This document shows positions 39,188-62,724 of a DNA stretch of 64,000 nt, piece by piece; the stretch's first letter is position 1; every line of letters starts with the position of its first letter. This stretch comes from Chloroflexota bacterium (GTDB lineage: Bacteria > Chloroflexota > Limnocylindria > Limnocylindrales > Limnocylindraceae): contig JBEDDM010000001.1 of NCBI GenBank assembly GCA_041176225.1, positions 20,405 to 84,404 on the forward strand, read 5' to 3'. A program made the position numbers and the translations under genes. The notes under the pieces are model-generated. The model saw only the letters and a list, made by a program, of their open reading frames with translations. It did not search any database and was not told the origin of the DNA.

Positions 39188-40224
39188 TCTTCGCTGCCGC
39201 AGCGCTTGTCGCTGCGTTGACAGCTGGTATGGGAACGCTCGTGATGCGCGCGATCGCGCGAAAGTACAACATTGCCGATCACCCGAGCGAGCGAAGGATT
39301 AACACCAAACCAGTGCCGCGAGCAGGCGGCCTCGCCGTTGCAGGTGCGTTCGCGCTGATCGGAACACTTCTTGTGATCTTCTCCGCGCAACTCGGACTCA
39401 GCGCAGGAAGTGGTTCGGCGGAACTGACGAGTGATGGCGCCGCTGCACTCTTGCTCGGTACGGTGATCGCTGGAGTGATCGGACTGATTGACGACCGTTA
39501 CGATCTGCGCGCGCGCTGGCAGATCATTGGACAGTTTCTGATTGCGCTAATCCCAATCGCCTTTGGGTTGCGGATCGCCTTCATCTCAAATCCGCTCGGC
39601 GCGGGCGACCTCCTCTTCCCCGACGCGATCGCGCTTGGCGTCACGATCTTCTGGACGCTCGGCATGCAGAACAGCATGAATTTCATTGACGGACTGGACG
39701 GACTCTCTGGAGGGATCTCGCTCTTCGCCGCTGTCACACTCGGCGTCATCGCACTCCCAACAAGTCCGCTGCTCGCCGCGCTCAGCTTTACGCTCGCGGG
39801 CGCACTCGCCGGTTTCTTGCGCTTCAACTTCTACCCGGCATCCATCTATATGGGGACGAGCGGCATTCTCGCGGTGGCGTACGCGCTGGCCGTCCTTGCA
39901 CTTCTCGGTACGGCGAAGGTGGCCGCGGCGCTTCTCATCCTTGGCGTGCCCATTATTGATGCACTCTTTGTCATCGTTGGGCGAATCGTCGCCGGACGAT
40001 CTCCATATACGCCGGACGAGAGCCACATCCATCGCCGCCTCCTCAGCTACGGCTTCTCGCACCGCGGCTCCGTCCTCGTCCTCTATGCCCTTACCGCAGC
40101 ACTCTCCATCCTTGCGCTCCTCCTGACTGGAAGCGCCACGCTCTACGCCTTCATGGGCCTCTTGGTGGTACTTGGCGGCGTGGTCGCTTACCTCTCTCGT
40201 GCAACCGAGCGGACCTCCAAGTGA
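39184..40224 (+). CDS. Polyprenyl-phosphate N-acetylhexosamine-1-phosphate transferase (WecA/TagO/Rfe-like, MraY family)
   Basis: 11-TM protein with …DDRYDL… and NFIDGLDGL motifs; ATGA overlap with glyA. Its position immediately before atpI-atpB mirrors the actinobacterial rfe-atp arrangement. Confidence 0.75.
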   Translation: MIFAAAALVAALTAGMGTLVMRAIARKYNIADHPSERRINTKPVPRAGGLAVAGAFALIGTLLVIFSAQLGLSAGSGSAELTSDGAAALLLGTVIAGVIGLIDDRYDLRARWQIIGQFLIALIPIAFGLRIAFISNPLGAGDLLFPDAIALGVTIFWTLGMQNSMNFIDGLDGLSGGISLFAAVTLGVIALPTSPLLAALSFTLAGALAGFLRFNFYPASIYMGTSGILAVAYALAVLALLGTAKVAAALLILGVPIIDALFVIVGRIVAGRSPYTPDESHIHRRLLSYGFSHRGSVLVLYALTAALSILALLLTGSATLYAFMGLLVVLGGVVAYLSRATERTSK

Positions 40225-40601
40225 GCCTCCCTGAGCGTGCCCCTGGAGAGCAGCGCGAGAGTCAGACCCCTCGGCTAGAATCGCCGCGGAACCCCAACGA
40301 GCCGCCTGCGGAGGCTGCCTTCGAAGGGAAGAGCGCCTACCTCGTGCTCTTCTCGCAGATCGGCGCAATGCTCCTCGTGGCGAACCTTGGTGGGGCACTC
40401 CTCGGGAACTGGCTGGACGGGCTTCTTGGGAGTGGACCACTCTTCTTGGTGGTTGGATTCCTCGGGGGCTTCGCGGTCGGCTCGATCGGAGCGGCACGCA
40501 CCGTCCGCCGGGCGCTGAACATGATTGACGAAGAGGATCGCCGGCGACGAGAGAAGAAACTAGAGGCGCGAGTCAACGAGAAGTCTGGAAGGAGCGAGTA
40601 G
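40221..40601 (+). CDS. ATP synthase protein I-like small membrane protein (AtpI/AtpZ family)
   Basis: 126 aa, 2 TM helices; GTGA overlap with the upstream gene and TAGTG overlap with atpB. Confidence 0.5.
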   Translation: MSLPERAPGEQRESQTPRLESPRNPNEPPAEAAFEGKSAYLVLFSQIGAMLLVANLGGALLGNWLDGLLGSGPLFLVVGFLGGFAVGSIGAARTVRRALNMIDEEDRRRREKKLEARVNEKSGRSE

Positions 40602-41560
40602 TGAGCATCGCGGCTCCCCGCACGTCCGCGACACGACGCACCCTCTTGATTGCAGCGCTCGGCGTCCTCCTGCTCGATGCCTTCGCCATCGTGATGTTTG
40701 GCGGCGTTGGACTCAACGGTTTCCCGGGCGACGTGATCAAGCGCGCGCTCGAACCAATTGTTCCTTACACGGTGATTGATCTTGGTGGCGACCCAACGCA
40801 TGTTGCGTCGCTCTTTGACTTCTATCCGAGTATCACGGGCTCGATCATCATGAGTTGGATTGTGATGGCGGTGATCATCGTTTCATTCTCACTTCTTGCG
40901 CGACGTCTCAAAGAGATCCCGAGTGGCGTGCAGAACGCGGTTGAGTTTGCGATCGAGGGTCTAACGAACTTTGCGATGGGCATTGGTGGTCCGGGTGCAA
41001 AGCGCTTCATCACCTTCTTCCTCGCCTGCTTCCTCTTCATCTCGATTTCAAACTGGTCGGGGCTGATCCCTGGCGTTGGACGCGTGCATGAGTTCCGTGC
41101 ACCAACAAGCGACGTCAATGTGACCGTCGGCCTTGCCCTCGTCGCCTTCGTCTACTTCCACTACCAAGGGTTCCGTGCGCTCGGCATCGGCGGCTACCTG
41201 GGCAAGTTCTTCACGCTGAAAGGGGGTCCGGTCGGCCTCTTCGTCGGCGTTCTCGAGTTCTTCTTGGAGCTCGTCAAACCAGTGACGCTTGCGATGCGAC
41301 TCTTCGGCAACATCTACGGCGGAGAGCTCGCGCTCACTGTGATGACTACAATCACGCTCGCGTTCATTCCCCTCGCCCTGTATGGCCTCGAGCTCTTCGT
41401 CGGCCTGATGCAGGGGATCATCTTCAGCGTGCTCGTCCTGGTCTTCACCATGCTTGCCATGGAGGGGCACCACGAAGAGGGGCACGATGAGCATCACGAA
41501 CCTGCTGGGGCAGGTGAAGGCTCCGTAGCAGGAGCAGAATCACAAGTTGCGGCACACTAG
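40601..41560 (+). CDS. atpB: F0F1 ATP synthase subunit a, with a His-rich C-terminal tail
   Basis: MRLFGNIYGGE essential-Arg motif; tail …MEGHHEEGHDEHHEPAGAGEGSVAGAESQVAAH. Confidence 0.95.
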   Translation: MSIAAPRTSATRRTLLIAALGVLLLDAFAIVMFGGVGLNGFPGDVIKRALEPIVPYTVIDLGGDPTHVASLFDFYPSITGSIIMSWIVMAVIIVSFSLLARRLKEIPSGVQNAVEFAIEGLTNFAMGIGGPGAKRFITFFLACFLFISISNWSGLIPGVGRVHEFRAPTSDVNVTVGLALVAFVYFHYQGFRALGIGGYLGKFFTLKGGPVGLFVGVLEFFLELVKPVTLAMRLFGNIYGGELALTVMTTITLAFIPLALYGLELFVGLMQGIIFSVLVLVFTMLAMEGHHEEGHDEHHEPAGAGEGSVAGAESQVAAH

Positions 41561-41631
41561 CCGTAGCTGAGAGACAGCAAGACCGACCGAGCGGAAGCGT
41601 CCGGACGGCGGTCACAGTAGGAGGTAGGAAG

Positions 41632-41841
41632 ATGGATCAGCTCCAGGCGGGCATCGCAGCCCTCGGCGTCATTGGGCCGGCCCTCGGTGTCGGTATCGCA
41701 ACCGCAGCGGCGGCAAGCGCGATCGGTCGAAATCCAGAGGCGGCCGGCGCAATCCGCGGCGTCTTCATCATCGGTGCAGCGTTCGCAGAAGGCCTCGGCG
41801 TTCTCGCGATCGTGCTCGGCATCCTTTCACTCGTTCTTTAA
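41632..41841 (+). CDS. atpE: F0F1 ATP synthase subunit c
   Basis: 69-aa hairpin; GRNPE loop and conserved acidic residue (…AFAEGLGVLA…). Confidence 0.95.
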   Translation: MDQLQAGIAALGVIGPALGVGIATAAAASAIGRNPEAAGAIRGVFIIGAAFAEGLGVLAIVLGILSLVL

Positions 41842-41850
41842 TCAGCAAAC

Positions 41851-42438
41851 GTGCAGATCGTTGAGGCGCAGATGATTGAGTTGATTCAGGGAGTGCTCGG
41901 AGCCTTCCCGTACGCTGAGGCCGCCGCTGGCGAAGCCGAAGGTGCGGGCTTGAGCTTCAATCTCTTCTGGATCTTGATCTCTGCGGCGAACTTCGGCTTC
42001 TTCATTATTGTCTTGCGTGCAGCAGCGCTCGGTCCCATCACAAAGATGTTGGATGAGCGACGCGAACGCATTGAGCGCGGCCTTCGCGACGCGGCAGACG
42101 CCGCACTCGCAAAGGGGCGCGCAATTGAAGCGGCTGACGCCTCCTTGGCAGAAGCACGACGTGAGTCAAACGAGATTCGCGCCAACGCGGAGAAGGCGGC
42201 GGCGCAGATTCGCGAACAGCAGGCGGCGTCACTCAAGGTCGAACTTGAGAAGATGCGAGCCGACGCAACCGCAGAGATTGAGGCGGCGCGCGTCAGCGCA
42301 CTCGCGTCTATTCGAAGTGAGGTTGCTGACCTTGCAATCAGCGCGGCGACCAAGGTGGTCGGCGCATCAATGGACGGTGATCGTCAGCGTGCACTCGTTG
42401 GCGAATTCCTGGACGAGCAGCGCGGGAAGGGGAACTGA
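41851..42438 (+). CDS. atpF: F0F1 ATP synthase subunit b
   Basis: N-terminal TM helix followed by a long Ala/Glu/Arg-rich coiled coil. Confidence 0.85.
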   Translation: MQIVEAQMIELIQGVLGAFPYAEAAAGEAEGAGLSFNLFWILISAANFGFFIIVLRAAALGPITKMLDERRERIERGLRDAADAALAKGRAIEAADASLAEARRESNEIRANAEKAAAQIREQQAASLKVELEKMRADATAEIEAARVSALASIRSEVADLAISAATKVVGASMDGDRQRALVGEFLDEQRGKGN

Positions 42439-42440
42439 TC

Positions 42441-42986
42441 GTGGATCGACCCCTCGGCTCTGCACGACGATACGCAGCGGCACTCCTCTCCCTTGCGGGT
42501 GAGGGTGGGGCGGCAGAGGCCCTCGTGGCTGAGCTTGATCGAGTGGCGGAGGTAGTGAACACCCCAGGGGCCCGCACAATTCTGGATGATCCGCGCACCC
42601 CACCGGCGGCACGCGTCGGCGCGCTTGAGGCGGCAACCGGAGCAACGGTGAGCCCAGCCGTGCACACGCTCATGGGAGCGCTCGCTTCGCGTCGAACGTT
42701 GGGACGACTTCCCGCGATCGCAGAGGCAACGCACGAGGCGCTGGACGCTCGCAACGGGATCGCGACTGCGCGCGTGAGCACACCTTCAGAGATTGGCGCA
42801 GACGAGCGCAGCAAGATTGAGGCGCAGGCGAAAGAGATCGCTGGTGGCAGCGTGCGCGTCAGCTATGACATTGACCCAAGCCTTGTTGGAGGCGTCACGC
42901 TTCGCGTGGGCGACCTCCTCATTGATGGAAGCGTCAAAGGAAAACTCGCGCGCATGCGTGAGCGCATCCTTTCGGCAGCCGGCTGA
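42441..42986 (+). CDS. atpH: F0F1 ATP synthase subunit delta
   Basis: 181 aa, OSCP-like; position between atpF and atpA. Confidence 0.85.
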   Translation: MDRPLGSARRYAAALLSLAGEGGAAEALVAELDRVAEVVNTPGARTILDDPRTPPAARVGALEAATGATVSPAVHTLMGALASRRTLGRLPAIAEATHEALDARNGIATARVSTPSEIGADERSKIEAQAKEIAGGSVRVSYDIDPSLVGGVTLRVGDLLIDGSVKGKLARMRERILSAAG

Positions 42987-43024
42987 ACCGGCGCAGCGCG
43001 TAGAGCAGCGAGGAGCAGAGAACC

Positions 43025-44556
43025 ATGGCAATCAAGTCAGACGAGATCATCAGCATCTTGAAGTCGCAGATCGCGGGCTTTGACGGCGGCGCCGAGTCGC
43101 GCACCGTTGGCACGGTGGTCGAAGTGGGCGACGGTATTGCGCAGGTCTATGGACTCTCTGGCGCTCTCTCGTCTGAACTTCTGGAGTTCCCTGGCGGCGT
43201 GGCCGGCATGGCACTCAACCTTGGCGAAGAGACGGTCGGCGCCGTGCTCCTTGGTGATGCGAAGAGCATTAAAGAGGGCGACACCGTTAAGACCACCGGT
43301 CGCGTTGTTGAGGTTCCAGTTGGACCAGAACTCATTGGTCGCGTGGTTGATCCGCTCGGTCGTCCACTGGACGGCAAGGGTCCAATCAACGCAAAGAAGA
43401 GCCGCCCCGTTGAGCGAATTGCGCCGGGCGTGATCAGCCGCAAATCAGTCACCACACCAGTGCAGACTGGTATCAAGGCGGTTGACGCACTCATCCCAAT
43501 CGGTCGCGGCCAGCGCGAGTTGATCATCGGTGACCGCCAGACCGGCAAGACCGCCGTGGCGATCGACACGATCATCAATCAGAAGGGGAAGGGCCTCATC
43601 TGCATCTACGTTGCAATCGGCCAGAAGCTCTCCACGGTGCGCACCGTTGTTGCCATGTTGGAGAAGCAGGGCGCCATGGGGCACACCGTCGTTGTGGTCG
43701 CAGGCGCCGAAGATCCAGCACCACTGCAGTACCTTGCGCCGTTCGCCGGTTGCGCGATTGCAGAAGAGATCATGGAAGAGGGCGTCACCGTTGACGGGAA
43801 GGAAGTGCGCGACGCACTCTGCGTCTACGACGATCTCTCCAAGCACGCGGTTGCGTATCGCGAGATGGCGCTCCTCTTGCGCCGACCGCCAGGACGCGAA
43901 GCGTATCCAGGCGACGTCTTCTATCTGCACAGCCGACTCCTTGAGCGCGCCGCGCGACTCTCGGACGATCTGGGCGGCGGTTCAATTACGGCGCTTCCAA
44001 TCATTGAGACGCAGGCGGGCGACGTTTCGGCGTACATCCCAACAAACGTCATCTCTATTACAGACGGACAGATCTTCCTTGAGACCGACCTCTTCAACGC
44101 GGGTCAGCGACCGGCGGTGAACGTTGGTATCTCCGTCTCGCGTGTGGGTTCCGCCGCGCAGACGAAGGCAATGAAGAAGGTTGCCGGACCGTTGAAGCTC
44201 GACCTTGCGCAGTACCGAGAGCTCGCGGCGTTCGCGCAGTTCTCTGGCGACCTTGACAAGTCAACGCGCGATCAGCTGACGCGCGGTGAGAAGCTCTCCG
44301 CCATCACACGCCAGCCACAGTACGCACCAGTGGCGGTGGAGAAGCAGGTCGCCATCCTCTACGTTGCGTCAAAGGGGAAGCTGGATGACGTCCCTACACC
44401 GCGCGTGAGTGAATTCGAGAGCGGCTTCTACACGTTCCTTGATCGCGAGCGCCCACAGGTGCTCGCCGAACTCGCTAAGGAGCAGGCGTTGACGGACAAC
44501 GCCGCGAAGGGCCTCGACGAGGCCGTTGACGTCTTCCGAAAGAGCTTCCTCGCCTA

Positions 44557-44557
<1 letters not shown>
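43025..44557 (+). CDS. atpA: F0F1 ATP synthase subunit alpha
   Basis: 510 aa; P-loop GDRQTGKT. Confidence 0.97.
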
Positions 44558-46852
<2,295 letters not shown>

Positions 46853-46855
46853 CGC

Positions 46856-47275
46856 ATGTCATTCTCATTGGAGATCGTGACGCCGGAGCGACTCACCTGG
46901 AGCGGTGAGGCAACGGCGCTCGTCCTTCCAACAGTTGACGGAGAGATCGGGATCCTGCCCAAGCACGAGCCGTACGTCACCGTGCTCGGACTCGGCGAGG
47001 GTCGGATCACCTTGAAGGACGGGAGCGTGGAGCTCTTGGCGATCATCGGCGGCTTCGTGCAGGTGCGTCCAGACCGCGTTCTGGTGCTGGCAGAGTCTGC
47101 AGATCTCGCCGCGGACCTTGACGTGGAGGCCATTGAAAAGGCAAAGGCGGTCGCCGAGCAGGCGCTCGCGCAGGTGGATCAGGCAGACCCAGGAGCCGTT
47201 GCTGCGGCTCGAGCCAGCATGGCCCGCGCACTCCTTCAGTCGAGCCTTGCGGAGCGCCGCCGCCGCCGCGGCTGA
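46856..47275 (+). CDS. atpC: F0F1 ATP synthase subunit epsilon
   Basis: 139 aa; N-terminal beta-sandwich plus C-terminal helices. Confidence 0.9.
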   Translation: MSFSLEIVTPERLTWSGEATALVLPTVDGEIGILPKHEPYVTVLGLGEGRITLKDGSVELLAIIGGFVQVRPDRVLVLAESADLAADLDVEAIEKAKAVAEQALAQVDQADPGAVAAARASMARALLQSSLAERRRRRG

Positions 47276-53147: not shown

Positions 53148-53819
53148 TCAGCGCTCGTAGGCCACGCTCACCACGGCAATCCAGCGCACCCCTGCCACTC
53201 GCAGTGCTCGCGCCGCCTCACGCGCGGTTGCGCCACTCGTCTGGATGTCATCGACCAGCACGACGGCACTCGGTAGCTCCACGTCCTCCCTGCACGACAT
53301 GGCCCCCTGCATGATTAACGCTCGCGCGGAGCGAGTGGCGCCATGAAGGGGTTCGGTGCTTCGAACACGCGCAAGGAGCCTCCGAACGGGGAGGTGTGCA
53401 GCGGCTCCTGCTGCGGTCGCGAGCAGCGCCGCATGGTCAAAGCCGCGCTCGTGCACGCGACCCTGGTCCGTCGGGATTGGCACGAGCGTGACCTGAAACG
53501 CTGCACGTGCTGATACCTGCTTGATCGCGGGTACGAGTGCCTCACCAAGCTCCCGGGCGAGCCCCTGCACACCCCCGTACTTCATGGTGCGAATGGCCGC
53601 TCCGAGTCCGCCTTCGTAGGGGCCAAGCGCCGCAGCGGCGGAGAGGTTCCCCGCCGGCAGTGCCACCGCGCGGTCTGAGATCCACTCGGCACGACACTCC
53701 GCGCAGAGCAGCGCCCCCTCGCACTCGCAGATCCCACAACGGGGCGGAGCGAGGAGTTCAACCAACGGCGCGGCTACAGAGCGCACGAGGAGTTGGAGCT
53801 GTAGCGAAAACGTGCGCAT
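53148..53819 (-). CDS. ComF-family protein (double zinc-ribbon plus phosphoribosyltransferase domain)
   Basis: CGICEC…CAEC N-terminal Cys cluster and a PRTase motif VVLVDDIQTSGAT. The track ORF to 54011 adds a long Arg-rich leader; internal Met at 53819 is preferred. Confidence 0.75.
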   Translation of the reverse strand: MRTFSLQLQLLVRSVAAPLVELLAPPRCGICECEGALLCAECRAEWISDRAVALPAGNLSAAAALGPYEGGLGAAIRTMKYGGVQGLARELGEALVPAIKQVSARAAFQVTLVPIPTDQGRVHERGFDHAALLATAAGAAAHLPVRRLLARVRSTEPLHGATRSARALIMQGAMSCREDVELPSAVVLVDDIQTSGATAREAARALRVAGVRWIAVVSVAYER

Positions 53820-53866
53820 GCCGTGATCTTCCACGCTCAAGCGTACGGAGCGCGTACGATACGGAG

Positions 53867-54901
53867 ATGACGACCCCAGTAGGCTCCCTTGCCGTCTCCG
53901 CGACCCCGCTGGCTGGGGTGAGCAAAGACGAGTGGTCCGCGCTCTTGCAGGCCAACCCGAGCGCAAGCGCCTTTTCGCTCCGCGCGTTTCATCAGGCGTG
54001 GTGGAGCGCACACGGGGGTGGCGCGGAAGACGTCAGCATCGCTGTGCGAAGTGCATCAAGCGGCGAACTCCTCGGCTATCTCCCGCTGATGCGTCGACCG
54101 GACGGCGTGACCTACTCCGGTGCAACGCTGCACATTGATTATGCCACCGTGCTGCTCGCGCCACACACGGGCGCGCCGAGTCAAGAGTCCGATCCTGTTG
54201 CAGACGCACTTGCAACGGCACTCCTTGCGCTCAACTCGCCAATCAACATGATGCGCATTCGCCCCGCTGATGTCGCGCACGTTCGAATGGTCGCCGCAAT
54301 CCACCGCGCCGCGGTGGCTGCATCGCGCGCGGCAACATATGCGATTGAAGAGCCGGCGCCATACATTGATCTTCAAGGGATCCGCACGCTCGATGAACAT
54401 CTGGAGCGCCTTGATAAGAAGCAGCGCCACGAGATTCGGCGCAAGGTTCGCCGCGGTGAAGCGGCTGGCGTGCAGATCAGCGCGAGCGAAGATGTGCTCG
54501 CTGATCTTCCTGAGTTCGTTCGCTTGCATCGCGCGCGTTGGGGCGAACGCGGGCTCTTTACCGAAACACCTAAAGGCGTGGAAGAGGAAGTCTTCCTGCG
54601 CGAGCTCTTCGCCACAGCGCCGAGCGGCACGATCAGTATGTTGATGGCGCGAAACGATGAGTTTGGAACATTTGCAGCGGGTCTCTTCTTACGAGACGCG
54701 GGTGCGATTAGATACTGGAATGCTGGAGGCGACGCGGCCGCGCGCGCACTCTCGCCTGGAGTGCTTCTCTTCGTCCACGGCCTAACACTCGCAATTAACG
54801 AGGGACGCGCGCAGTTGGACTTTTTGCGAGGGAATGAGGCGTACAAGTACGAGTGTGGCGCAGTAGATGCGCGGGTGATGAAGTTGGAGATCCCTCGATG
54901 A
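53867..54901 (+). CDS. GNAT-fold acyltransferase of the FemAB/BioF2/CelD-like (Acetyltransf_6, PF13480) type
   Basis: C-terminal …LFVHGLTLAINEGRAQLDFLRGNEAYKYECGA is typical of PF13480. The track ORF starts at 53537 with an Arg/Pro-rich artefact; Met at 53867 (MTTPVGS…) is preferred. Confidence 0.6.
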   Translation: MTTPVGSLAVSATPLAGVSKDEWSALLQANPSASAFSLRAFHQAWWSAHGGGAEDVSIAVRSASSGELLGYLPLMRRPDGVTYSGATLHIDYATVLLAPHTGAPSQESDPVADALATALLALNSPINMMRIRPADVAHVRMVAAIHRAAVAASRAATYAIEEPAPYIDLQGIRTLDEHLERLDKKQRHEIRRKVRRGEAAGVQISASEDVLADLPEFVRLHRARWGERGLFTETPKGVEEEVFLRELFATAPSGTISMLMARNDEFGTFAAGLFLRDAGAIRYWNAGGDAAARALSPGVLLFVHGLTLAINEGRAQLDFLRGNEAYKYECGAVDARVMKLEIPR

Positions 54902-56124
54902 GCCGCATGGCTCACCAGAAGCCGTGCACGGGGCGCGCGCCTGCAGGGCCGCTCCCTGACGGCTCGCGTATCCGCGTGATGCAGCTCCTTGCCACAGGGA
55001 CCAATGGTGGGGCGCAGGAGAGCCTCGTCAATACGGTGCTGCGTCTGGATAACTCGCGCCACGATGTGTGCGTGGTTTCACTCTCGCACGGGAGCACGGT
55101 GAAGCGACTCGAACGTCTCAAGATTCCCGTTGAGGTGATTGAAGACGAGCACGATGATCGCGCGGCGGCGGCACTCGCCGAGCGGATGATCGCGCTGAAG
55201 ACGCAGGTGATCCATGCGCATATGTTCCGCGCCGATGTTGTTGCGGTATATGCGGCCGACCTTGTGGAGAAGCGCACAGGGGTTCGTCCACTTGTGGTCT
55301 CCACGCTGCACTCGAGTCGCTTCCGGTCTGCGGAGGATCGTGAACTACTGGAGAAACTCACGCCGCGTATCGACTGGCTGATCGCCGTGAGCGATGCGAT
55401 CGTGCGCAAGATCGTGGCAGAGAACCGCGACAGCACCGCCATCAGCAGGATCTACAACGGCGTGGACCTGGAACGTTTTGATGAAGCGCCTGGCCGCGAC
55501 GTCGTGCGCAAGGAGTTCGGCATCCCAAGTGACGCCCCAGTGGTGGCGGCGATTGGCCGTCTTGAGCCTGAGAAGGGGCACCCCACGCTCATTGAGGCCT
55601 GGCCGCTGGTGCACCACCATTTCCCGCAGGCGCGCCTCTTGATTGCTGGCGAGGGCTCAGAGCGCGATCGACTCGAGGGGCTCGCCGCTGCGCATCTACG
55701 CAGCGAACTCTGCTGCGACAGCGTTGCGTTCCTTGGTCGTCGTGACGACATCCCTGCGGTCTTGGCGGCAGCAGATGTGGTGGCAATGCCGAGCTACCGC
55801 GAAGCACAAGGGATCGCCATCCTTGAAGCCCTCGCAGCAGAGCGACCGGTAGTGGCGAGCAACGTGGGCGGAATTCCAGAGATGATCTCCGATGGCGAGA
55901 CAGGAATCTTAGTTCCGTCGCACGATCCATCCGCACTAGCAGCGGCGATCATTGCACTCTTCACACATCCAGATCGCGCGGCGAAACTCGCCACCGCTGG
56001 GCACGAGATGGTGCACGAAGAGTTCTGCATCGACTACATGATGCAAGATATTGAAGCGATCTATGCGCTCGCAGTAGGTGGTGATGCAACACTCGTCCCT
56101 GATCGGAACGGCGTTCGCGCGTAG
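54898..56124 (+). CDS. Family 4 (GT-B) glycosyltransferase
   Basis: …EGSERDRLEGLAAAH…, EAQGIAILEALAAERPVVASNVGGIPEMI (E-x7-E region); ATGA overlap with the preceding GNAT gene. Confidence 0.8.
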   Translation: MSRMAHQKPCTGRAPAGPLPDGSRIRVMQLLATGTNGGAQESLVNTVLRLDNSRHDVCVVSLSHGSTVKRLERLKIPVEVIEDEHDDRAAAALAERMIALKTQVIHAHMFRADVVAVYAADLVEKRTGVRPLVVSTLHSSRFRSAEDRELLEKLTPRIDWLIAVSDAIVRKIVAENRDSTAISRIYNGVDLERFDEAPGRDVVRKEFGIPSDAPVVAAIGRLEPEKGHPTLIEAWPLVHHHFPQARLLIAGEGSERDRLEGLAAAHLRSELCCDSVAFLGRRDDIPAVLAAADVVAMPSYREAQGIAILEALAAERPVVASNVGGIPEMISDGETGILVPSHDPSALAAAIIALFTHPDRAAKLATAGHEMVHEEFCIDYMMQDIEAIYALAVGGDATLVPDRNGVRA

Positions 56125-56136
56125 CGGCGCTCGCGC

Positions 56137-57225
56137 TTAGCGGCGGACAGCGCTCCAGTAGCGCTCGGCAGATCCAGAGCGACCAGTATCAAGCGCCACA
56201 CGCGCGCCGTGACCACGCACGGCGTCTGCCATCTTCTCGACTGAGCCAAAGAGGTGCGGTGTTTGCGATTCGTAAAGTGAGATCCCCTTGATCTTGGTCT
56301 CAATGACCGCACTCGTATCTACAATCTCAGGCGTCAGTGCAACATCCGCTGGCAGTTCGGCGGAATACTCTGCAGGGAGTCCACCCTGTGCGTTGAACTC
56401 GCTCCACCACGCGTATGGGAAGTCTTCATAGAACGAGATTCTGCTCGCCCAGTCGGGGCCAGGCATCTCCCACTTACGCGGTTCTGCCAGAAGTGCCGCA
56501 CCAACCTTGCGTGCGAGCTGATGATCAACATGTGATCCAATGCCGAGTGGGAAGTAGACCTGCTGCGGCTCAAGTCGCGCGATCTCCTGTGCGAGCAGTG
56601 CAACTGGTGCCACATCGCCGTCACGAACACGGCCAAGCAACTGTTCGTCACCTTCGTATCCACGGAAGACCGCGTCTGGGAGGTCAAGGAAGATCACCGC
56701 CGCCTCGCTGAAGAGTGCGTAGCGCTCATCTTCCATTTTGCGCTGCGCCATGGCGTCACCCGCCGCAGCTGCTACGGCAATGGCGCCCGGAGTTGTTGTC
56801 CCCTGTCCGCCAACCGCATCCACATCTTTTGCGTGCGGGAGTCCGCCGCCGCCACTGATATCTGCCTTGCGATACCAGGATGCGCGCTGCCAGAACTCTT
56901 TTGCGCTCGCATCCGCCTCCTGCTGCGTGGCGGCGAGCCGACCGCGCTCTGCCTGCCACGGCGCAAGCTCGCTCTCTGTTTCGCCAGGGACGTTCACGTC
57001 CGCAGCAACGGAGCCGCGATCAAAAGATTCCGTTGACGGCCAGATCGCCTTGCCACCAAAGCCGAGCGCCTGGCGCTGGTACGAGGACATGCGCGTGAGA
57101 TCACCATGCCCAGAGAAGACGCTGATGATGATCACGTTCTGCCCGAGTTCGCGCAGGTGGGCGATCAGTCCGCCACACGAGAGTGCCGCGTCATCTGGGT
57201 GTGGTGAGATGAAGATGTGGCTCAT
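56137..57225 (-). CDS. PIG-L/LmbE-family N-acetylglucosaminyl deacetylase, with an unusual ~130-aa insertion
   Basis: N-terminal ISPHPDDAALSCGG motif and a later GIGSHVDH motif; 362 aa versus about 230 typical. Confidence 0.7.
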   Translation of the reverse strand: MSHIFISPHPDDAALSCGGLIAHLRELGQNVIIISVFSGHGDLTRMSSYQRQALGFGGKAIWPSTESFDRGSVAADVNVPGETESELAPWQAERGRLAATQQEADASAKEFWQRASWYRKADISGGGGLPHAKDVDAVGGQGTTTPGAIAVAAAAGDAMAQRKMEDERYALFSEAAVIFLDLPDAVFRGYEGDEQLLGRVRDGDVAPVALLAQEIARLEPQQVYFPLGIGSHVDHQLARKVGAALLAEPRKWEMPGPDWASRISFYEDFPYAWWSEFNAQGGLPAEYSAELPADVALTPEIVDTSAVIETKIKGISLYESQTPHLFGSVEKMADAVRGHGARVALDTGRSGSAERYWSAVRR

Positions 57226-57265: not shown

Positions 57266-57445
57266 CTACGGGCTAGGCGAGACGCTCGGCGACTCGGACG
57301 CGCTCGGCGCGGGGGTCGCGGAGAGCGCCTTGGGGAACGTCTTCAAGAAGCCATCACGACCAAAGATCATTGGGTAGGCGATCACGGCCGCAATGGCGAT
57401 CGTGCAGATCAGCACGAAGGTTCGGGGTCCGCGGTCTTTGGTCAT
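57266..57445 (-). CDS. Possible 59-aa small membrane protein (below the ORF-track cutoff)
   Basis: Hand translation gives MTKDRGPRTFVLICTIAIAAVIAYPMIFGRDGFLKTFPKALSATPAPSASESPSVSPSP; one TM helix; lies between the PIG-L start and the lipoprotein gene. Confidence 0.3.
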   Translation of the reverse strand: MTKDRGPRTFVLICTIAIAAVIAYPMIFGRDGFLKTFPKALSATPAPSASESPSVSPSP

Positions 57446-57464: not shown

Positions 57465-58613
57465 TCAGCGCAGGGAGGCGTATCCGGTGAGTTCCACGTA
57501 GGCGTCGCCTCGGACTGGGCGGCCGTTTAGGCTGCCGCGCACCACGTTGGATCCCTCCCAGTAGATGACCCCAGTGGTCGCTCGCGTATCGAGCTCCTGA
57601 TCCTTCACATCTGGGGTGATCGTGACCTGCAGGCCACGCGTAGGGATCTTGAGCTCCCAGCCGGAGGGCCAGGCCGCCCCCGTGTGTGGGCTCGTCCACT
57701 CGCCGGTCGGCGTCAGCTGGATCTCACTCCCGTCGATCCGTTCAAAGTCGCCGTCTCCGTTGATCCATGTGCCGTAGATGAGCGGGTAGCTGCCGTCCGC
57801 GGCACGGACAAAGGAGAGGGTCACCTCAATCCCGCGCGCACTCCCGTTATCCAGCGTGAGTGCGAACCAGTCCCATCCGCCACCACCCACCGCAATGAAG
57901 TCACCCCACTGATGGTCGAACCAGGATGTCCCCTGCACGGCGAGAACTTCACCATCCACAGTGAGCGTTCCACCGGTTGGCATGCGCGTGCGCGAGTAGT
58001 AGTAGGAACCGCCCGCAATATCAAAGTCCACCCAGCCGTCGTTGTCGTGCAGCACAGGCGCTTCGGGTGCGGCGAGCTGCAAGTTGAACCACTCCGCATC
58101 AATCTGCATGGAACCATCAAGCCCAACGATCATGCTCCATGGATCGTTCTCCAGCGTGGCGGGACTCAACGGATCTGCGCCAGTGATGGCAAAGGCCGCA
58201 GCGATCGGCGCGTCAATCATCGCGGTGATGTCCACCTGCGGACCAATCTCGGCACGCTCGTAGTAGGTAAACGATCCTTCACGTCCACCACGCGGTTTCT
58301 CTGTCAGCGCCATGTGTGACGCCCAGGTGACAGGGAAGTCGCCGCGAATCGCGCGGAAGATGACCGCCTCATATCCAAACGCGCGCGAACCATCCAGCGT
58401 GGTCAGGTGCCCAGTGACGTACCACCACTCGGTGAGTCGATCATGCGGCGCGTCGTCGCGCGGGAACTGCACCGGTTGCGGATCATTGCGCGGCGGCGGC
58501 GGCGTCGCCTTGACGATCGGCGCGCCAGCAACGGCTGGCGGATTCGCCAAGATTGGACCAGTGCAGGCGCTCACCGTGAAGAGCGCGAACACCAGTGCCA
58601 CTACCTTCATCAT
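57465..58613 (-). CDS. Lipoprotein with a CrtC/AttH-like lipocalin-type domain
   Basis: Lipobox LFTVSAC; …HDRLTEWWYVTGHL… resembles the hydroxyneurosporene-synthase/AttH family; ATGA overlap with the upstream MMPL gene. Confidence 0.6.
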   Translation of the reverse strand: MMKVVALVFALFTVSACTGPILANPPAVAGAPIVKATPPPPRNDPQPVQFPRDDAPHDRLTEWWYVTGHLTTLDGSRAFGYEAVIFRAIRGDFPVTWASHMALTEKPRGGREGSFTYYERAEIGPQVDITAMIDAPIAAAFAITGADPLSPATLENDPWSMIVGLDGSMQIDAEWFNLQLAAPEAPVLHDNDGWVDFDIAGGSYYYSRTRMPTGGTLTVDGEVLAVQGTSWFDHQWGDFIAVGGGGWDWFALTLDNGSARGIEVTLSFVRAADGSYPLIYGTWINGDGDFERIDGSEIQLTPTGEWTSPHTGAAWPSGWELKIPTRGLQVTITPDVKDQELDTRATTGVIYWEGSNVVRGSLNGRPVRGDAYVELTGYASLR

Positions 58614-60922
58614 CGGCTGCGCGCCTCCGCTTCCGCTTCACTGGCAATGCGACCGGCGAGTAGACGCTGCATCCACTTCGGCGACCACCAGTTCCAATCA
58701 CCAAAAAGGCGCATCGTTGCAGGAACCAAGAGGGCGCGAACGATCGTTGCATCGAGTGCTACGGCAATGGCAACGCCAACACCAAGCGCTTTAATCAACA
58801 CGATCTCCGCGAAGATGAACGACGCAGAGACAACAAAGACGATGAGTGCGGCAGAGGTGATGATGCGTCCACTGCGCTCAAGGCCACCCGCAACGGCGGC
58901 CACGTTGTCACCGGTGCGATCGTAAATCTCGCGCATGCGCGTGAGTAGGAAGACTTCGTAGTCCATTGAGAGACCGAAGAGGACGCAGAACAGGATCACC
59001 GGGATTGTTGTCTCCACAAACCCGAGCGGTGCAAATCCAAGGAGTGCGGAGAGGTTCCCATCTTGGAAGATCCAGACGAGTGCGCCGAAGCTCGCAAGGA
59101 TGGAGAGCATGTTCATGAAGACCGCCTTGATCGGCAACACAATTGAACGCAACAGCACCGCGAGGATGAGCAGTGTGCTGATGATCACCACCGCGGCGGA
59201 GCGTGGGAACTCTGCGGAGATGGTGTCCACCACATCCACAATCTCCGCGGCACCACCACCAATGAGTGCCTCAACACCATCAGGTGGCGTGATCGCACTC
59301 GGTTCTCCCGCGCCGAGCGCGTCTGGCCGAGCGGCGCGTAACTCTGCAACAAGTGCGCGCGACTCTGGTCGATTCGGACCGTAGGTTGGCGTGATGGAGA
59401 TCGCGGTGAGATCGTCCTTGGTGGTGAGCGAGAGGATCTGCACGGCGAATCGATCCGGTGGCGCACCAGCGGGCGACGCGTAGAGGAGTTGGTACTGCGC
59501 AAGGTTCATGCGCGGGTCAATGGAGACGAACGATTCCACACGCGCAATCCGCGGATCCGCCTGCATCTTCTGCACCCAGTTGTAGAGGAGGGTGATGTTC
59601 TCGGGGCTCGTGGCAGGTCCTTCGGTGCGAACGGCAATACTCATTGGACCGAACGAACCTTCACCGAAGGCCTCGGTCAGCGCGTCGAGCGCCTGCCTGC
59701 TCGGCACGCGTTCAGGGAGGACGCTCCCGTCAGGCGCGTTGAAGCGGACGCCGAGCCACGGGGTGCCGAGCGCCACCAGGAGCGCAAAGGTGGGGAGCGC
59801 CACGGCGAGTGGCCGGCGCATCACGGCGCGTGCGAGGCGGGCCCACGGCCCCTGCTCGTTCACCCGACCGCTGCCGAGCTTCCGGATGGCGAGGCGATTC
59901 ACCCGTGTGCCGAGCAGGCTCAGGAGGGCGGGCATCAGGGTGATGCTTGCGGCAACGGCAATGGAGACGGTTACCGCGCCCGCAATGCCAATGCTGCGCA
60001 GGATCGCAAAGTCGAAGAGGGCGAGCCCAGCAAGGCCGAGCATGACGGTCACGCCAGAGAAGAAGACGGCGCGTCCGGCGGTGGCCACCGTTCGTTGCAC
60101 TGCGTCGCCAATCGCCGCACCGCGCCCGAGCTCTTCACGGAAGCGAGAGACGAGCAGCAGCGCGTAGTCAACGCCAAGGCCGAGTCCGAGCAGTGTGGTG
60201 AGGTTCAACACGAAGATGCTCATGCGCGTTGCCTGCGCAATGCCGAAGATTGCGGCGAGCCCAACGATCACCGTTGCGCCACCAACGGCGAGTGGGAGTC
60301 CGGCGGCGACGGCGGAGCCAAACACCAACAGTAAGACGATCGCAGCGAGCGGGAGGCTGATCAGCTCGCTGCGCTGAAGATCTGTCTCCGAAACACTCTG
60401 AATGTCTGCATAGAACGAAGGACCGCCAGCGATTGCAACCTTGATCCCTGGAACCGACTTGATCGCCGCCTGGATCCCTTCAAGCGCCGCGGGCGAATCA
60501 TCGGGCTTCAAGTCGAGCAGGATCACGTCGTAGACGATCTTCTTATCAACGTTGACTTGCGACGGTGCAATCAGATGAGAGCGCGAGCCAACCACATGGG
60601 GCGCCTTCAGCACGCCAGCGACCGCCTCTCCTGCCGCAACTTCAAACTGCGGTGTGCCAGGGATGAACGTCTCTGAGCTGATCGCAAGCACAAGTGCCGA
60701 TGGTGGCGCGCTGAGCTCTTCTTCAAGGATCGCGCGCGCCCGCGCGCTCTCAAGCGTTGGCAGGTCGAAGCCGCCCGCTTGCAGTGCACCTGGCGCCTGC
60801 GGTGCAAATGGGAGTGCACATGCAATCAGCAGCACCCATGCGCCAATGACCCAGGTGCGGCGCGCATGCACCCATGCACCGAGTCGTTCAAACGGTGGGA
60901 GCGGAGCGGTGCGCTTCGCCAC
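58610..60922 (-). CDS. MMPL-family (RND superfamily) membrane transporter
   Basis: Two 6-TM bundles each followed by periplasmic domains. The track ORF runs to 61072; a GTG at 60922 forms a TAGTG overlap with the upstream metallophosphoesterase stop and is the preferred start. Confidence 0.85.
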   Translation of the reverse strand: MAKRTAPLPPFERLGAWVHARRTWVIGAWVLLIACALPFAPQAPGALQAGGFDLPTLESARARAILEEELSAPPSALVLAISSETFIPGTPQFEVAAGEAVAGVLKAPHVVGSRSHLIAPSQVNVDKKIVYDVILLDLKPDDSPAALEGIQAAIKSVPGIKVAIAGGPSFYADIQSVSETDLQRSELISLPLAAIVLLLVFGSAVAAGLPLAVGGATVIVGLAAIFGIAQATRMSIFVLNLTTLLGLGLGVDYALLLVSRFREELGRGAAIGDAVQRTVATAGRAVFFSGVTVMLGLAGLALFDFAILRSIGIAGAVTVSIAVAASITLMPALLSLLGTRVNRLAIRKLGSGRVNEQGPWARLARAVMRRPLAVALPTFALLVALGTPWLGVRFNAPDGSVLPERVPSRQALDALTEAFGEGSFGPMSIAVRTEGPATSPENITLLYNWVQKMQADPRIARVESFVSIDPRMNLAQYQLLYASPAGAPPDRFAVQILSLTTKDDLTAISITPTYGPNRPESRALVAELRAARPDALGAGEPSAITPPDGVEALIGGGAAEIVDVVDTISAEFPRSAAVVIISTLLILAVLLRSIVLPIKAVFMNMLSILASFGALVWIFQDGNLSALLGFAPLGFVETTIPVILFCVLFGLSMDYEVFLLTRMREIYDRTGDNVAAVAGGLERSGRIITSAALIVFVVSASFIFAEIVLIKALGVGVAIAVALDATIVRALLVPATMRLFGDWNWWSPKWMQRLLAGRIASEAEAEARSR

Positions 60923-61662
60923 TATCTGCCCACCGCAAGTCGCGATGCGAGTGAGTCGGGGAGCCCTGCGGCGTCGATCGCTTCTTGTGCACTCGGAATG
61001 TCGTACTCCACACGGCGCCACATCACGCGGCCAAGACCCGCGCTTGCTTCGTCGCGCTCCCAGAGCAGCCATGCGGCGCGCGGATCTCTGTCGCGCGGTT
61101 GACCAACAGATCCAGCATTCACCAGTGATGCGCCGTGCAGCGGGATCGGATCTTTGCTCACCGCAGTCAGATGCGCAACTTCGCCGCGCAACTCCCAGAT
61201 TGCTGGGATGTGCGTATGCCCATGGAAGAGGAGTGGCGTGTTGAGTCCGCGCAGATTCTCTTCTGCCGTAGCGGCATCAATGACGTACTCCATGATCGGA
61301 TCACGGAGCGACGCGTGCACCAGCGTTGCTGAGCCCATCTCTAGAACGCGCGGAAGTGCACGCAACCACTCTCTACTTGGTGCGGTGAGCACCTCACGCG
61401 TCCACATTGCCGCCGCATAGGCACCTTCGTTGAAGCTCTCCACAATCTCATCACCGAGTGCGGCAAGGTCGTGATTCCCCATCACGCCGGTTGCACCCAC
61501 GCGTTGCAACTCTTCAATCACCTCGTTCGGTGAGGCCCCGTATCCAACCACATCCCCGCAGTGCCAGATCGGCGCGTGCGGCGCAACCTTCGCAACATCA
61601 TCAAGCACGGCGCGCAGCGCCTGGATGTTGGCGTGCACGTCAGAGAGGATGACGACGCTCAT
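60922..61662 (-). CDS. Calcineurin-like metallophosphoesterase (YfcE/MPP_superfamily)
   Basis: MSVVILSDVHAN…GDVVGYG…GNHD motifs. Confidence 0.85.
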   Translation of the reverse strand: MSVVILSDVHANIQALRAVLDDVAKVAPHAPIWHCGDVVGYGASPNEVIEELQRVGATGVMGNHDLAALGDEIVESFNEGAYAAAMWTREVLTAPSREWLRALPRVLEMGSATLVHASLRDPIMEYVIDAATAEENLRGLNTPLLFHGHTHIPAIWELRGEVAHLTAVSKDPIPLHGASLVNAGSVGQPRDRDPRAAWLLWERDEASAGLGRVMWRRVEYDIPSAQEAIDAAGLPDSLASRLAVGR

Positions 61663-61683
61663 CAGGCGGCCGACTTCATCGCG

Positions 61684-62343
61684 TTACGACCGATTCCTAA
61701 AGCGCTTTAGCAGCCCAAGCCGCCATGCGCCAAGGAGCAGCAGCGCAGGGAGACCAATCGCCAAGAGGATCGTTTCGAATGGCGCAAGGTACTCCTGCAC
61801 CTCTTCCCATCGCGCACCGAGCGCGGCCCCGCCCCAGATGAGCGCCGCATTCCAGATCAGTGCGCCAACGGTGCTGTAGAGAAGGAACGGAACCAGCGGC
61901 ATGCGGGCGATCCCGGCGGGGAAGGAGATCGCGGTGCGGAGGAGCGGCACGAAGCGGCTCCAGAAGACCACCTTCCCTCCGTGACGGGCGAAGAAGCGAT
62001 CCGCGCGATCAAGGTCATCAGAAGAGATGCGCACGAAACGGCCGTAGCGCACGAGTAGGCGTCGGCCACCGTATGCGCCGATCGCATACGCGCCAAGGGT
62101 GCCAGCCGTGGAGCCGATCGTGGCGAAGAGGATCGTGGGGATCAGCTCCCAGCGGCCGCCCGTGAGTGGCTCGATCGCCGTTGGGTCCGCCACAAGGAAT
62201 CCGGCGAACGGGAGGATGAACTCCGAAGGGACGGGGAAGCTCGATGCGTCCACCGCCATCGCCACGGCAAGGCCGAGGTAGCCGACCGCCTCATAGAGGG
62301 AGGTGATCAGCGGGATCAGGATCTCATCAAGCCAAGCGAGCAT
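61684..62343 (-). CDS. DedA/SNARE-associated family membrane protein
   Basis: 219 aa; conserved DedA re-entrant region …FVPLLRTAISFPAGIARMP…. Confidence 0.8.
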   Translation of the reverse strand: MLAWLDEILIPLITSLYEAVGYLGLAVAMAVDASSFPVPSEFILPFAGFLVADPTAIEPLTGGRWELIPTILFATIGSTAGTLGAYAIGAYGGRRLLVRYGRFVRISSDDLDRADRFFARHGGKVVFWSRFVPLLRTAISFPAGIARMPLVPFLLYSTVGALIWNAALIWGGAALGARWEEVQEYLAPFETILLAIGLPALLLLGAWRLGLLKRFRNRS

Positions 62344-62352
62344 GCCTCTAGC

Positions 62353-62724
62353 GTGCCAGAGATCGCCCCCCAGCGAGCGGTTCGCTATGATTCGCGCATG
62401 ACACTCTTCACGCTTCCGTTTACGAACCCAATGGAGTTCTTCATCTCGCTCGCCATTGGCGGGGGGTTCGTCTACATCTTCCAGAAGGCCGCAATGAGCC
62501 AGGAGCAGCGCGAAACCTCATGGGTGAAGCGCTTCGTCACTGGCCCAAACAGCAAGGTCCTCTGGGGTGTGCTCTTCGTTGGCTGGGCAGTTGTCTTCGG
62601 CCTCCTGCTCGGAAGCTTTGAAGACAAGACCGCGCACTCGCCATACGGCTCCGTTGGCCTAATCGCGCTCTTCTCCGGCTTCTTCGTGATGATGGGATTC
62701 ATCTGGGCGAGCATCGGCGAATAG
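62353..62724 (+). CDS. Small polytopic membrane protein, unknown function
   Basis: 123-aa ORF with 3 predicted TM helices; the true start may be an internal Met. Confidence 0.4.
   Translation: MPEIAPQRAVRYDSRMTLFTLPFTNPMEFFISLAIGGGFVYIFQKAAMSQEQRETSWVKRFVTGPNSKVLWGVLFVGWAVVFGLLLGSFEDKTAHSPYGSVGLIALFSGFFVMMGFIWASIGE

Follow-up and report, generated by a model that had tools for sequence, protein, structure and literature searches.

A 64,000-nucleotide (nt) stretch of contig JBEDDM010000001.1 from a Chloroflexota bacterium (hereafter the window, in which all coordinates are counted) carries a transporter gene of the MMPL family followed directly by a gene for an AttH/CrtC-type lipoprotein. Here, we report that the pair is co-inherited across genomes, that its two members diverge at matching rates and that in some genomes they are fused into one. 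We read them as a two-gene unit in which the pump hands over an isoprenoid-type lipid to the lipoprotein, with the two upstream genes, for a DedA membrane protein and a metallophosphoesterase, as bystanders, and we put the probability of this reading at roughly 65%. An original prediction, made from the sequence of the window, had grouped all four genes, which lie on the minus strand, into a candidate envelope-lipid export module. The proposed module of four genes does not amount to a system, two of its members being, to judge from their gene neighbourhoods, lineage-specific neighbours, whereas the idea that MMPL and the lipoprotein act together is strongly supported by their conserved adjacency and by natural fusions.

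An MMPL transporter and an AttH-like lipoprotein are inherited together

The comparison covered 85 loci centred on lipoprotein homologues, made up of 80 species-level genomes found by a pattern scan and the contigs of selected metagenome proteins, which we searched with the window proteins. The closest matches, at 96-97% identity, came from Candidatus Limnocylindrus (Chloroflexota, class Limnocylindria). In 58 loci an MMPL gene lies directly 5′ of the AttH-like gene on the same strand, and over these loci the identity of the AttH-like protein to the window lipoprotein ranges from 96% down to ~34%. They are mostly from Chloroflexota, including Limnocylindria, Ktedonobacteria (with the cultured Ktedonosporobacter rubrisoli, L045), Dehalococcoidales (L066) and others, and the sole Rubrobacter locus belongs to one metagenome-assembled genome (L042). 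The identities of the MMPL and AttH proteins to their window counterparts are correlated over the 58 loci (r = 0.94), and the 4-nt overlap between the two genes recurs in L001, L002, L005, L009, L022, L043, L086 and L091.

Moreover, the two proteins are encoded by a single continuous open reading frame (ORF) in 10 species-level genomes (L011, L012, L013, L026, L034, L036, L037, L038, L039 and L040), and an exhaustive search of representatives returned the metagenome protein P0121 (1141 aa) and the fragment P0158, which combine MMPL, CrtC and Lipocalin_9. At the junction, ~100-200 nt before the AttH domain, all 10 genomic fusions carry a hydrophobic helix together with basic residues and the motif L-x-[AG]-C. 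Since the C-terminus of MMPL is cytoplasmic, an extra membrane pass is needed to put the AttH domain outside, and the former signal peptide could serve in the fusions as a thirteenth membrane helix with the AttH domain outside the cell. Instead of remaining one chain, the fused proteins may also still undergo lipid modification and cleavage at the internal lipobox. Taken together, adjacency, co-divergence and fusion identify MMPL and AttH as a two-gene unit.

A second transporter class is associated with the same family. Distant AttH homologues in Nitrospira, Acidobacteriota, Melainabacteria and proteobacteria lie directly 3′ of genes for MacB/FtsX-type permeases, and P0263 is a fusion of MacB_PCD, FtsX and AttH domains. 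An association with ABC proteins and LolD had been noted for the AttH-like protein NE1406 in its structure paper (PMC2954199). The presence of AttH beside both MMPL and MacB/FtsX suggests that one partner family is recruited by two transporter classes, both of which work at the outer face of the cytoplasmic membrane. Because association and fusion with two classes of outer-leaflet extractor mirror LolCDE-LolA and MmpL7-LppX, they would also suit a pair in which the lipoprotein is a passive carrier or adaptor (LolA-, LppX- or LprG-like) that accepts a lipid and brings it, chemically unchanged, to the wall or surface layer. A lipocalin-like fold would suit such a carrier, as would a lipid anchor with a flexible linker for a shuttle or adaptor; however, as part of a fusion the domain would have to be cut from the pump before it could shuttle. 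Considering this together with the residue conservation described below, we hold a passive carrier to be possible but doubtful.

Two other fusions of the AttH domain were noted: P0133 (671 aa) joins it to a UbiA prenyltransferase, which points to isoprenoid chemistry, and P0185 (728 aa) joins it to Peripla_BP_6.

A full-text literature search returned no description of an MMPL-AttH pairing, although its coverage is incomplete and the result is not proof. The principle of an RND/MMPL lipid pump with an extracytoplasmic lipid-handling partner is already known, as are AttH-like proteins with ABC transporters. What appears to be new is that, in Chloroflexota, an MmpL3-like MMPL lineage is coupled specifically and widely, fusions included, to an AttH-like lipoprotein.

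The pump, its lipid-anchored partner and the probable cargo

The transporter matches PF03176 in two stretches with 289.1 bits against a cut-off of 20.5, which assigns it to the MMPL family of the RND superfamily. Its best relatives in the PDB are MmpL3 structures (2.9e-85, 290 bits), while MmpL4/5 structures trail at about 1e-34 to 4e-37 and about 130 bits. It scored 343.7 bits against the NCBIfam MmpL3 equivalog NF052608, below the cut-off of 1400; judged by these scores, the protein is MmpL3-like and not an MmpL3 orthologue. Both Asp-Tyr pairs of the MmpL3 proton relay are kept (Table 1), suggesting that MMPL should be an active proton-driven pump.

The MmpL4/5 structures among the PDB matches, together with a match to the TIGR00833 'actII' MMPL subfamily (1.9e-60) that at 205.2 bits stays below its cut-off of 874.7, would also be compatible with export of a non-lipid small molecule such as a siderophore, an antibiotic or a toxic hydrophobe, with the AttH-like protein as an MmpS-like accessory factor. 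MMPL proteins do export siderophores too, and no lipid-biosynthesis gene is conserved nearby. However, the pump is closest to MmpL3-type lipid exporters, no biosynthetic cluster for a secreted metabolite accompanies it, the AttH family is tied to isoprenoid substrates, and retention in a streamlined planktonic genome of 1.3 Mb favours a core envelope role. We regard non-lipid export as very improbable.

The lipoprotein begins with a signal peptide that ends in a V-S-A-C lipobox (MMKVVALVFALFT-VSAC, which fits [LVI][ASTVI][GAS]C), so that the lipid anchor proposed in the original prediction is borne out by the sequence pattern of a bacterial lipoprotein. The putative anchor residue Cys17 is invariant across 46 homologues, and a lipobox is present in most of the readable MMPL-linked loci as well as at the junction of every genomic fusion. 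Homologues also share a Pro/Ala-rich segment at the position of the tether that follows. Beyond it, PF07143 (91.1 bits) and PF17186 (118.5 bits) both exceed their cut-offs and form the AttH/CrtC domain pair.

In the AlphaFold2 model of the lipoprotein (predicted local distance difference test score, pLDDT, 82.6; predicted template modelling score, pTM, 0.80), the anchor Cys is followed by a disordered Pro-rich segment and then by two beta-barrels. The top Foldseek match of the model was AttH (PDB 2ICH; E 3.7e-23, template modelling score 0.66/0.78), and 2ICH was also found by sequence search (2.1e-30) and profile search (1.4e-91), in agreement with the CrtC/AttH-type fold that had been proposed. 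The next Foldseek matches were kievitone hydratase, 25-phosphosteroid lyase and the decalin-forming Diels-Alderases Fsa2, Phm7 and CghA. The motif that closes the N-terminal barrel (Table 1) is common to kievitone hydratase (7A0Q) and 2ICH in the alignment, and the C-terminal barrel can be aligned to both. Among homologues of 31-51% identity, H57, E62, W63, Y65, W231, D233, W247, W249, W306, E340, Y351, E353, G354 and E374 are invariant, most of them acidic or aromatic, and the lipoprotein and kievitone hydratase have the motifs W-x-D-x-Q-W-G, W-x-W-F, DQEL, EG and VE in common at an overall identity of only ~18%.

Every characterised AttH-fold protein among the returned matches is an enzyme, and the characterised proteins of this fold act on isoprenoid, steroid or polyketide substrates. 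The enzymes here are CrtC, kievitone hydratase, hydroxy-GDGT synthase (GDGT, glycerol dialkyl glycerol tetraether), 25-phosphosteroid lyase and the decalin Diels-Alderases, of which the first three are hydratases of isoprene double bonds: CrtC is carotenoid 1,2-hydratase (PMC4717167), and hydroxy-GDGT synthase (Hgs) was recently reported as an AttH/CrtC-fold hydratase (bioRxiv 10.1101/2025.10.20.683597). This record speaks against the passive carrier raised above, in that no AttH-fold member among the matches is a known carrier, and the invariant acidic, His, Trp and Tyr residues that are common with a bona fide hydratase would be unusual in a greasy pocket. The family record and the conserved polar residues favour chemistry over passive acceptance, while the transporter association fits either. 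The suggestion that the lipoprotein accepts a hydrophobic cargo thus agrees with its lipocalin-like fold but, considering that the characterised fold members returned are enzymes, understates its possible role. By analogy with these enzymes, the lipoprotein may be an extracytoplasmic isoprenoid hydratase or lyase docked on MMPL and fed with a membrane isoprenoid (carotenoid, polyprenol or quinone-type), a specific assignment that we consider rather unlikely. If it holds, the pair would be a proton-driven, RND-class counterpart of the ABC-class 'extract-and-process' machine YbbAP-TesA, and the fused forms might be polyproteins cut at the retained internal lipobox.

On the two-gene reading that we prefer, the pump, driven by the proton gradient, would remove a hydrophobic molecule from the cytoplasmic membrane at its outer leaflet and pass it to the AttH-like two-barrel protein, which would be kept alongside by its lipid anchor and a flexible tether of ~40 residues. 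The partner would bind the cargo and may modify it too, for example by adding water onto an isoprene double bond, since the characterised AttH-fold proteins are enzymes and three of them are such hydratases. The cargo would most likely be an isoprenoid-type lipid, such as a carotenoid, a polyprenol or a quinone-like molecule.

MMPL lipid exporters with lipoprotein helpers are established in mycobacteria, where the named pairs are MmpL7-LppX, MmpL3-LpqN and LprG-Rv1410. The window pump resembles MmpL3 and the mycobacterial systems in its MmpL3-like core with Asp-Tyr relay pairs, and in having as its partner an extracytoplasmic protein with a lipid anchor and a fold for hydrophobic ligands. In contrast, it lies far under the MmpL3 equivalog cut-off, its host is a Chloroflexota bacterium without mycolic acids, its partner has the AttH two-barrel fold and not that of LppX or LprG, and the partnership is encoded, in the window and its relatives, by overlapping genes or by fusion. 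HpnN for hopanoids and BstA/B/C for sterols are likewise RND-superfamily pumps for an isoprenoid lipid with dedicated periplasmic binders, but the HpnN and BstA models matched MMPL weakly (56.6 bits against a cut-off of 751.85, and 23 against 1400), and these systems serve the outer membrane in diderms. Chloroflexota are generally regarded as monoderm.

The AttE-H and NE1404-NE1406-type systems, which use type VII ABC permeases of the MacB/FtsX kind, have a partner of the same protein family encoded right after the transporter gene and sometimes fused to it, and like the window pair they are without functional characterisation. They differ in the motor, which is a putative proton-driven MMPL in the window and an ATP-driven MacB-type permease in these systems, and in the partner, which is a lipoprotein in the window, whereas most ABC-linked AttH homologues have plain signal peptides or anchors. 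CrtC, kievitone hydratase and Hgs share the fold and all act on isoprene units of hydrophobic molecules; however, their sources, as far as the accessible text extends, mention no lipobox or transporter partner, and the likeness seen in the window protein is to the motifs of kievitone hydratase. In CrtC, the catalytic residues are H239, W241, Y266 and D268. A precedent for a transporter that presents a membrane lipid to an attached periplasmic enzyme is YbbAP-TesA of E. coli (PMC12646458), although that system couples a type VII ABC transporter to an SGNH esterase instead of MMPL to an AttH fold. AttH is not mentioned in the same paper, and the window lipoprotein is an enzyme only putatively.

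DedA and the phosphoesterase upstream of the pair

The original prediction had read four minus-strand genes at 62343-57465, separated by a 21-nt gap, a TAGTG overlap and an ATGA overlap, and inspection of the sequence and of the ORF translations found all of these elements at those positions. A Pfam profile scan also agreed with each of the four gene identities, namely DedA, metallophosphoesterase, MMPL and lipocalin-like lipoprotein. The MMPL gene probably starts with the GTG at 60922, since no other in-frame start lies between the preceding stop codon and FERLGAWVHARRTWVIG, a segment that we take to resemble the MmpL3 N-terminus. The gene for MMPL likewise starts just 3′ of the phosphoesterase stop in relatives.

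DedA carries a VTT domain (68.7 bits), and UptA is the NCBIfam model that fits it best, although its 137.6 bits do not reach the cut-off of 250. The protein is probably an undecaprenyl-phosphate flippase of the UptA type. The phosphoesterase matches Metallophos_2 with 66.6 bits and carries the motifs D8-x-H10, G36-D37, G62-N-H-D65 and GHTH of a calcineurin-like metallophosphoesterase. Its translation begins directly with the first metal-binding motif (SDVH) and shows no signal peptide and no transmembrane (TM) segment. The nearest PDB entry is the uncharacterised metallophosphoesterase 3RQZ (2.8e-47), and the nearest named relatives are ApaH/YfcE-type enzymes and not lipid phosphatases, with weak matches to ApaH (36.5 bits, cut-off 176) and YfcE (33.3 bits, cut-off 56.25) that are below the cut-offs. 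The proposal that it acts on a lipid head-group is therefore not upheld by its sequence, and its candidacy as a lipid pyrophosphatase was rejected as unsupported, because it has no export signal, resembles ApaH/YfcE and is not conserved in the neighbourhood.

DedA and the phosphoesterase are found 5′ of MMPL only in the freshwater, genus-level Limnocylindrus clade (L002, L005, L008, L009, L086, L087 and L091), and neither was in the operon position at any of the 43 loci outside this clade whose upstream sequence extends for 2.5 kb or more. In other Limnocylindrales, one DedA orthologue is surrounded by histidine-utilisation genes and another by DNA-repair genes (52-53% identity), and no phosphoesterase, MMPL or AttH gene was found within 5 kb of these two. 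DedA and the phosphoesterase were also rejected as an independent conserved pair, since the DedA orthologues in L089 and L090 are without a nearby phosphoesterase. Inside the Limnocylindrus clade, the whole region is syntenic, including the PIG-L, GT4 and acetyltransferase genes, and the co-occurrence of the four genes there is therefore uninformative. The co-localisation proposed in the original prediction thus holds in relatives for MMPL and the lipoprotein but fails outside the clade for the other two, indicating that the conserved unit does not include DedA or the phosphoesterase.

The tight spacing of the four genes also carries little information, since the window is ~94% coding and the median gap between same-strand neighbours is 6 nt. 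In a crude gene call over the whole window, 28 of 45 same-strand neighbour pairs lie at most 25 nt apart and 17 overlap. Limnocylindraceae genomes are reduced to ~1.3 Mb, and their coding density is raised through shortened spacers (PMC13212565). In the close relative L009, the DedA and phosphoesterase genes are separated by an intervening gene for a luciferase-like (LLM-class) oxidoreductase (3986-4891), which overlaps each neighbour by 4 nt; this indicates that in the Limnocylindrus lineage overlaps arise between unrelated genes. Gene overlap in a genome-reduced organism is accordingly poor evidence for a functional module.

These observations bear on the explanation in which all four proteins work on one envelope lipid, with DedA flipping it, the phosphoesterase trimming its phosphate or pyrophosphate head-group, MMPL exporting it and the lipoprotein receiving it. 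The genes are contiguous, co-oriented and overlapping, an arrangement kept across the freshwater Limnocylindrus clade; a polyprenyl theme is conceivable, with a UptA-like DedA and AttH enzymes that act on isoprenoids; and the neighbouring PIG-L, GT4, LPG_synthase_TM, MurA and MreB genes are envelope-related. However, overlaps are the norm in this genome, synteny deprives the co-occurrence within the clade of weight, an unrelated gene separates DedA from the phosphoesterase in L009, and the phosphoesterase, being ApaH/YfcE-like, has neither an export signal nor a membrane segment. With the operon position empty at all 43 loci outside the clade and DedA orthologues elsewhere lacking the other three genes within 5 kb, we judge the four-protein explanation very unlikely, and the best reading of DedA and the phosphoesterase is that they are housekeeping genes which came to lie beside the pair during genome reduction.

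Flanking genes and the standing of the pair

A small multi-TM protein is encoded divergently just upstream of DedA (Table 1), and no Pfam or NCBIfam family matched it. In a hidden Markov model search it was found in 36 of the 85 loci (among them L001 5183-5518, L010 4045-4401 and L012 4225-4671), always 5′ of the MMPL gene and always in loci of the Limnocylindria type, and it was absent from the Ktedonobacteria, Dehalococcoidia and Rubrobacter loci. Its gene is usually divergent from MMPL and lies on the same strand in L012, L013, L040 and L054; in the Limnocylindrus clade, the DedA and phosphoesterase genes stand between it and the MMPL gene. When all ORFs of the 85 loci were clustered, no other gene proved to be conserved beside the MMPL-AttH pair beyond close relatives, and the clusters that recurred were those of ABC ATPases, a radical-SAM aminomutase-like gene, the small TM protein and antisense shadow ORFs.

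Several points weigh against the two-gene reading. The small multi-TM protein may be a third component, or may reflect only class-level synteny. The same clustering found no biosynthetic gene for any candidate lipid conserved beside the pair, and it is from the fusions that we infer physical contact between MMPL and the lipoprotein. Since NE1406 has only small enclosed pockets and no large lipocalin cavity (PMC2954199), bulk carriage of a lipid by this fold is not obvious. Within the Limnocylindrus clade, the four genes stay together down to ~53-60% identity, so that co-expression or some functional link of all four could yet exist in this lineage, and DedA as a polyprenyl-phosphate handler could in principle share a substrate class with an isoprenoid-directed AttH protein.

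The lipoprotein gene had been taken as the terminal gene of the string but is probably not the last, as a 59-aa single-TM ORF and a PIG-L-like gene follow with no terminator-like site between them (Table 1). Homologous ORFs of 67-90 aa occupy the position of the 59-aa ORF in L002, L005, L086 and L091. A promoter and terminator scan of 56.9-62.8 kb returned no promoter-like site, and terminator-like sites there did not exceed the shuffled expectation and fell at no gene boundary, so the operon limits could not be set.

Further downstream, the block at 53148-57225 is syntenic throughout the Limnocylindrus clade and holds genes for a PIG-L-like deacetylase (matched by the Pfam model only over the first ~50 residues), a GT4 glycosyltransferase and an Acetyltransf_6/FemAB-like protein, with AP_endonuc_2, LPG_synthase_TM, PHP, MreB and MurA genes beyond it. 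This neighbourhood looks like one of envelope biogenesis and is not conserved beside MMPL-AttH outside the clade. Two long ORFs on opposite strands, at 53148-54011 (-) and 53537-54901 (+), overlap by ~470 nt; relatives annotate phosphoribosyltransferase-like and Acetyltransf_6 genes at 53148-54901 with much shorter N-termini, suggesting that both ORFs probably start further downstream than listed.

Pfam scans of 20 further window genes found no carotenoid or isoprenoid genes among them; these are housekeeping genes, including those for RF1, SHMT, the ATP synthase operon, MurA and MreB. A complete F1Fo ATP synthase operon (AtpI-like, a, b, delta, alpha, gamma, beta and epsilon) lies at 40221-47275 (+), and 5′ of it are genes for a WecA/MraY-type Glycos_transf_4 protein, SHMT, a HAD hydrolase, PrmC and RF1, an ordinary housekeeping context.

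Table 1. Features of the MMPL-AttH gene pair and its surroundings, in window coordinates.
Feature	Position	Strand	Remarks
DedA/VTT-domain membrane protein, UptA-like	61684..62343	-	219 aa; PF09335 8.6e-19
Spacer from DedA to phosphoesterase	61683-61663	-	21 nt
Calcineurin-like metallophosphoesterase	60922..61662	-	246 aa; Metallophos_2 3.2e-18
TAGTG junction, phosphoesterase/MMPL	60922	-	stop TAG and GTG start have the G in common
MMPL-family RND transporter, MmpL3-like core	58610..60922	-	770 aa; PF03176 4.9e-86
Asp252-Tyr253 (GVDYALL), putative TM4 proton-relay pair	60164..60169	-	aligned to MmpL3 'giaiDYglfivsrfree'; codons gac tac
Asp654-Tyr655 (SMDYEVF), putative TM10 proton-relay pair	58958..58963	-	aligned to MmpL3 'glstDYevflvsrm'; codons read
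ATGA stop/start overlap, MMPL/lipoprotein	58610..58613	-	GGAGG 10 nt 5′ of ATG
AttH/CrtC-family two-barrel lipoprotein	57465..58613	-	382 aa; PF07143 1.7e-25 and PF17186 2.9e-34
Signal peptide and lipobox (MMKVVALVFALFTVSAC, Cys17)	58563..58613	-	read from the sequence
Pro-rich, predicted-disordered tether, residues 18-58	58440..58562	-	pLDDT <50 at residues 15-30, 32-36 and 50-58
N-terminal barrel (CrtC N-terminal lipocalin domain), residues 61-237	57903..58433	-	ends W231-F-D233-H-Q-W-G; Pfam
C-terminal barrel (Lipocalin_9), residues 245-378	57480..57881	-	GWDW, DQEL, YWEG and YVELTGY motifs; Pfam
Single-TM ORF, may continue the transcription unit	57266..57445	-	59 aa; starts 19 nt 3′ of lipoprotein stop; begins MTKDRGPRTFVLICTIAIAAVIAYPMIF
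PIG-L-like gene	56137-57225	-	40 nt beyond the 59-aa ORF
Small multi-TM protein	62353..62724	+	123 aa; likelier start Met16 at 62398

That the pair is kept in a streamlined genome of 1.3 Mb suggests a core role. Mycobacterial MMPL/RND lipid pumps have been studied closely, whereas little work exists on those of Chloroflexota, a phylum that is large, mostly uncultured and has a poorly understood envelope, and the AttH-like family, with 4,747 cluster representatives at E <= 0.001, is a family of thousands that is largely uncharacterised. The co-inherited and sometimes fused pair described here, together with the use of AttH partners by MacB-type ABC transporters in other phyla, gives both families a candidate functional context, in which a hydrophobic and probably isoprenoid molecule would be handled at the outer face of the membrane.

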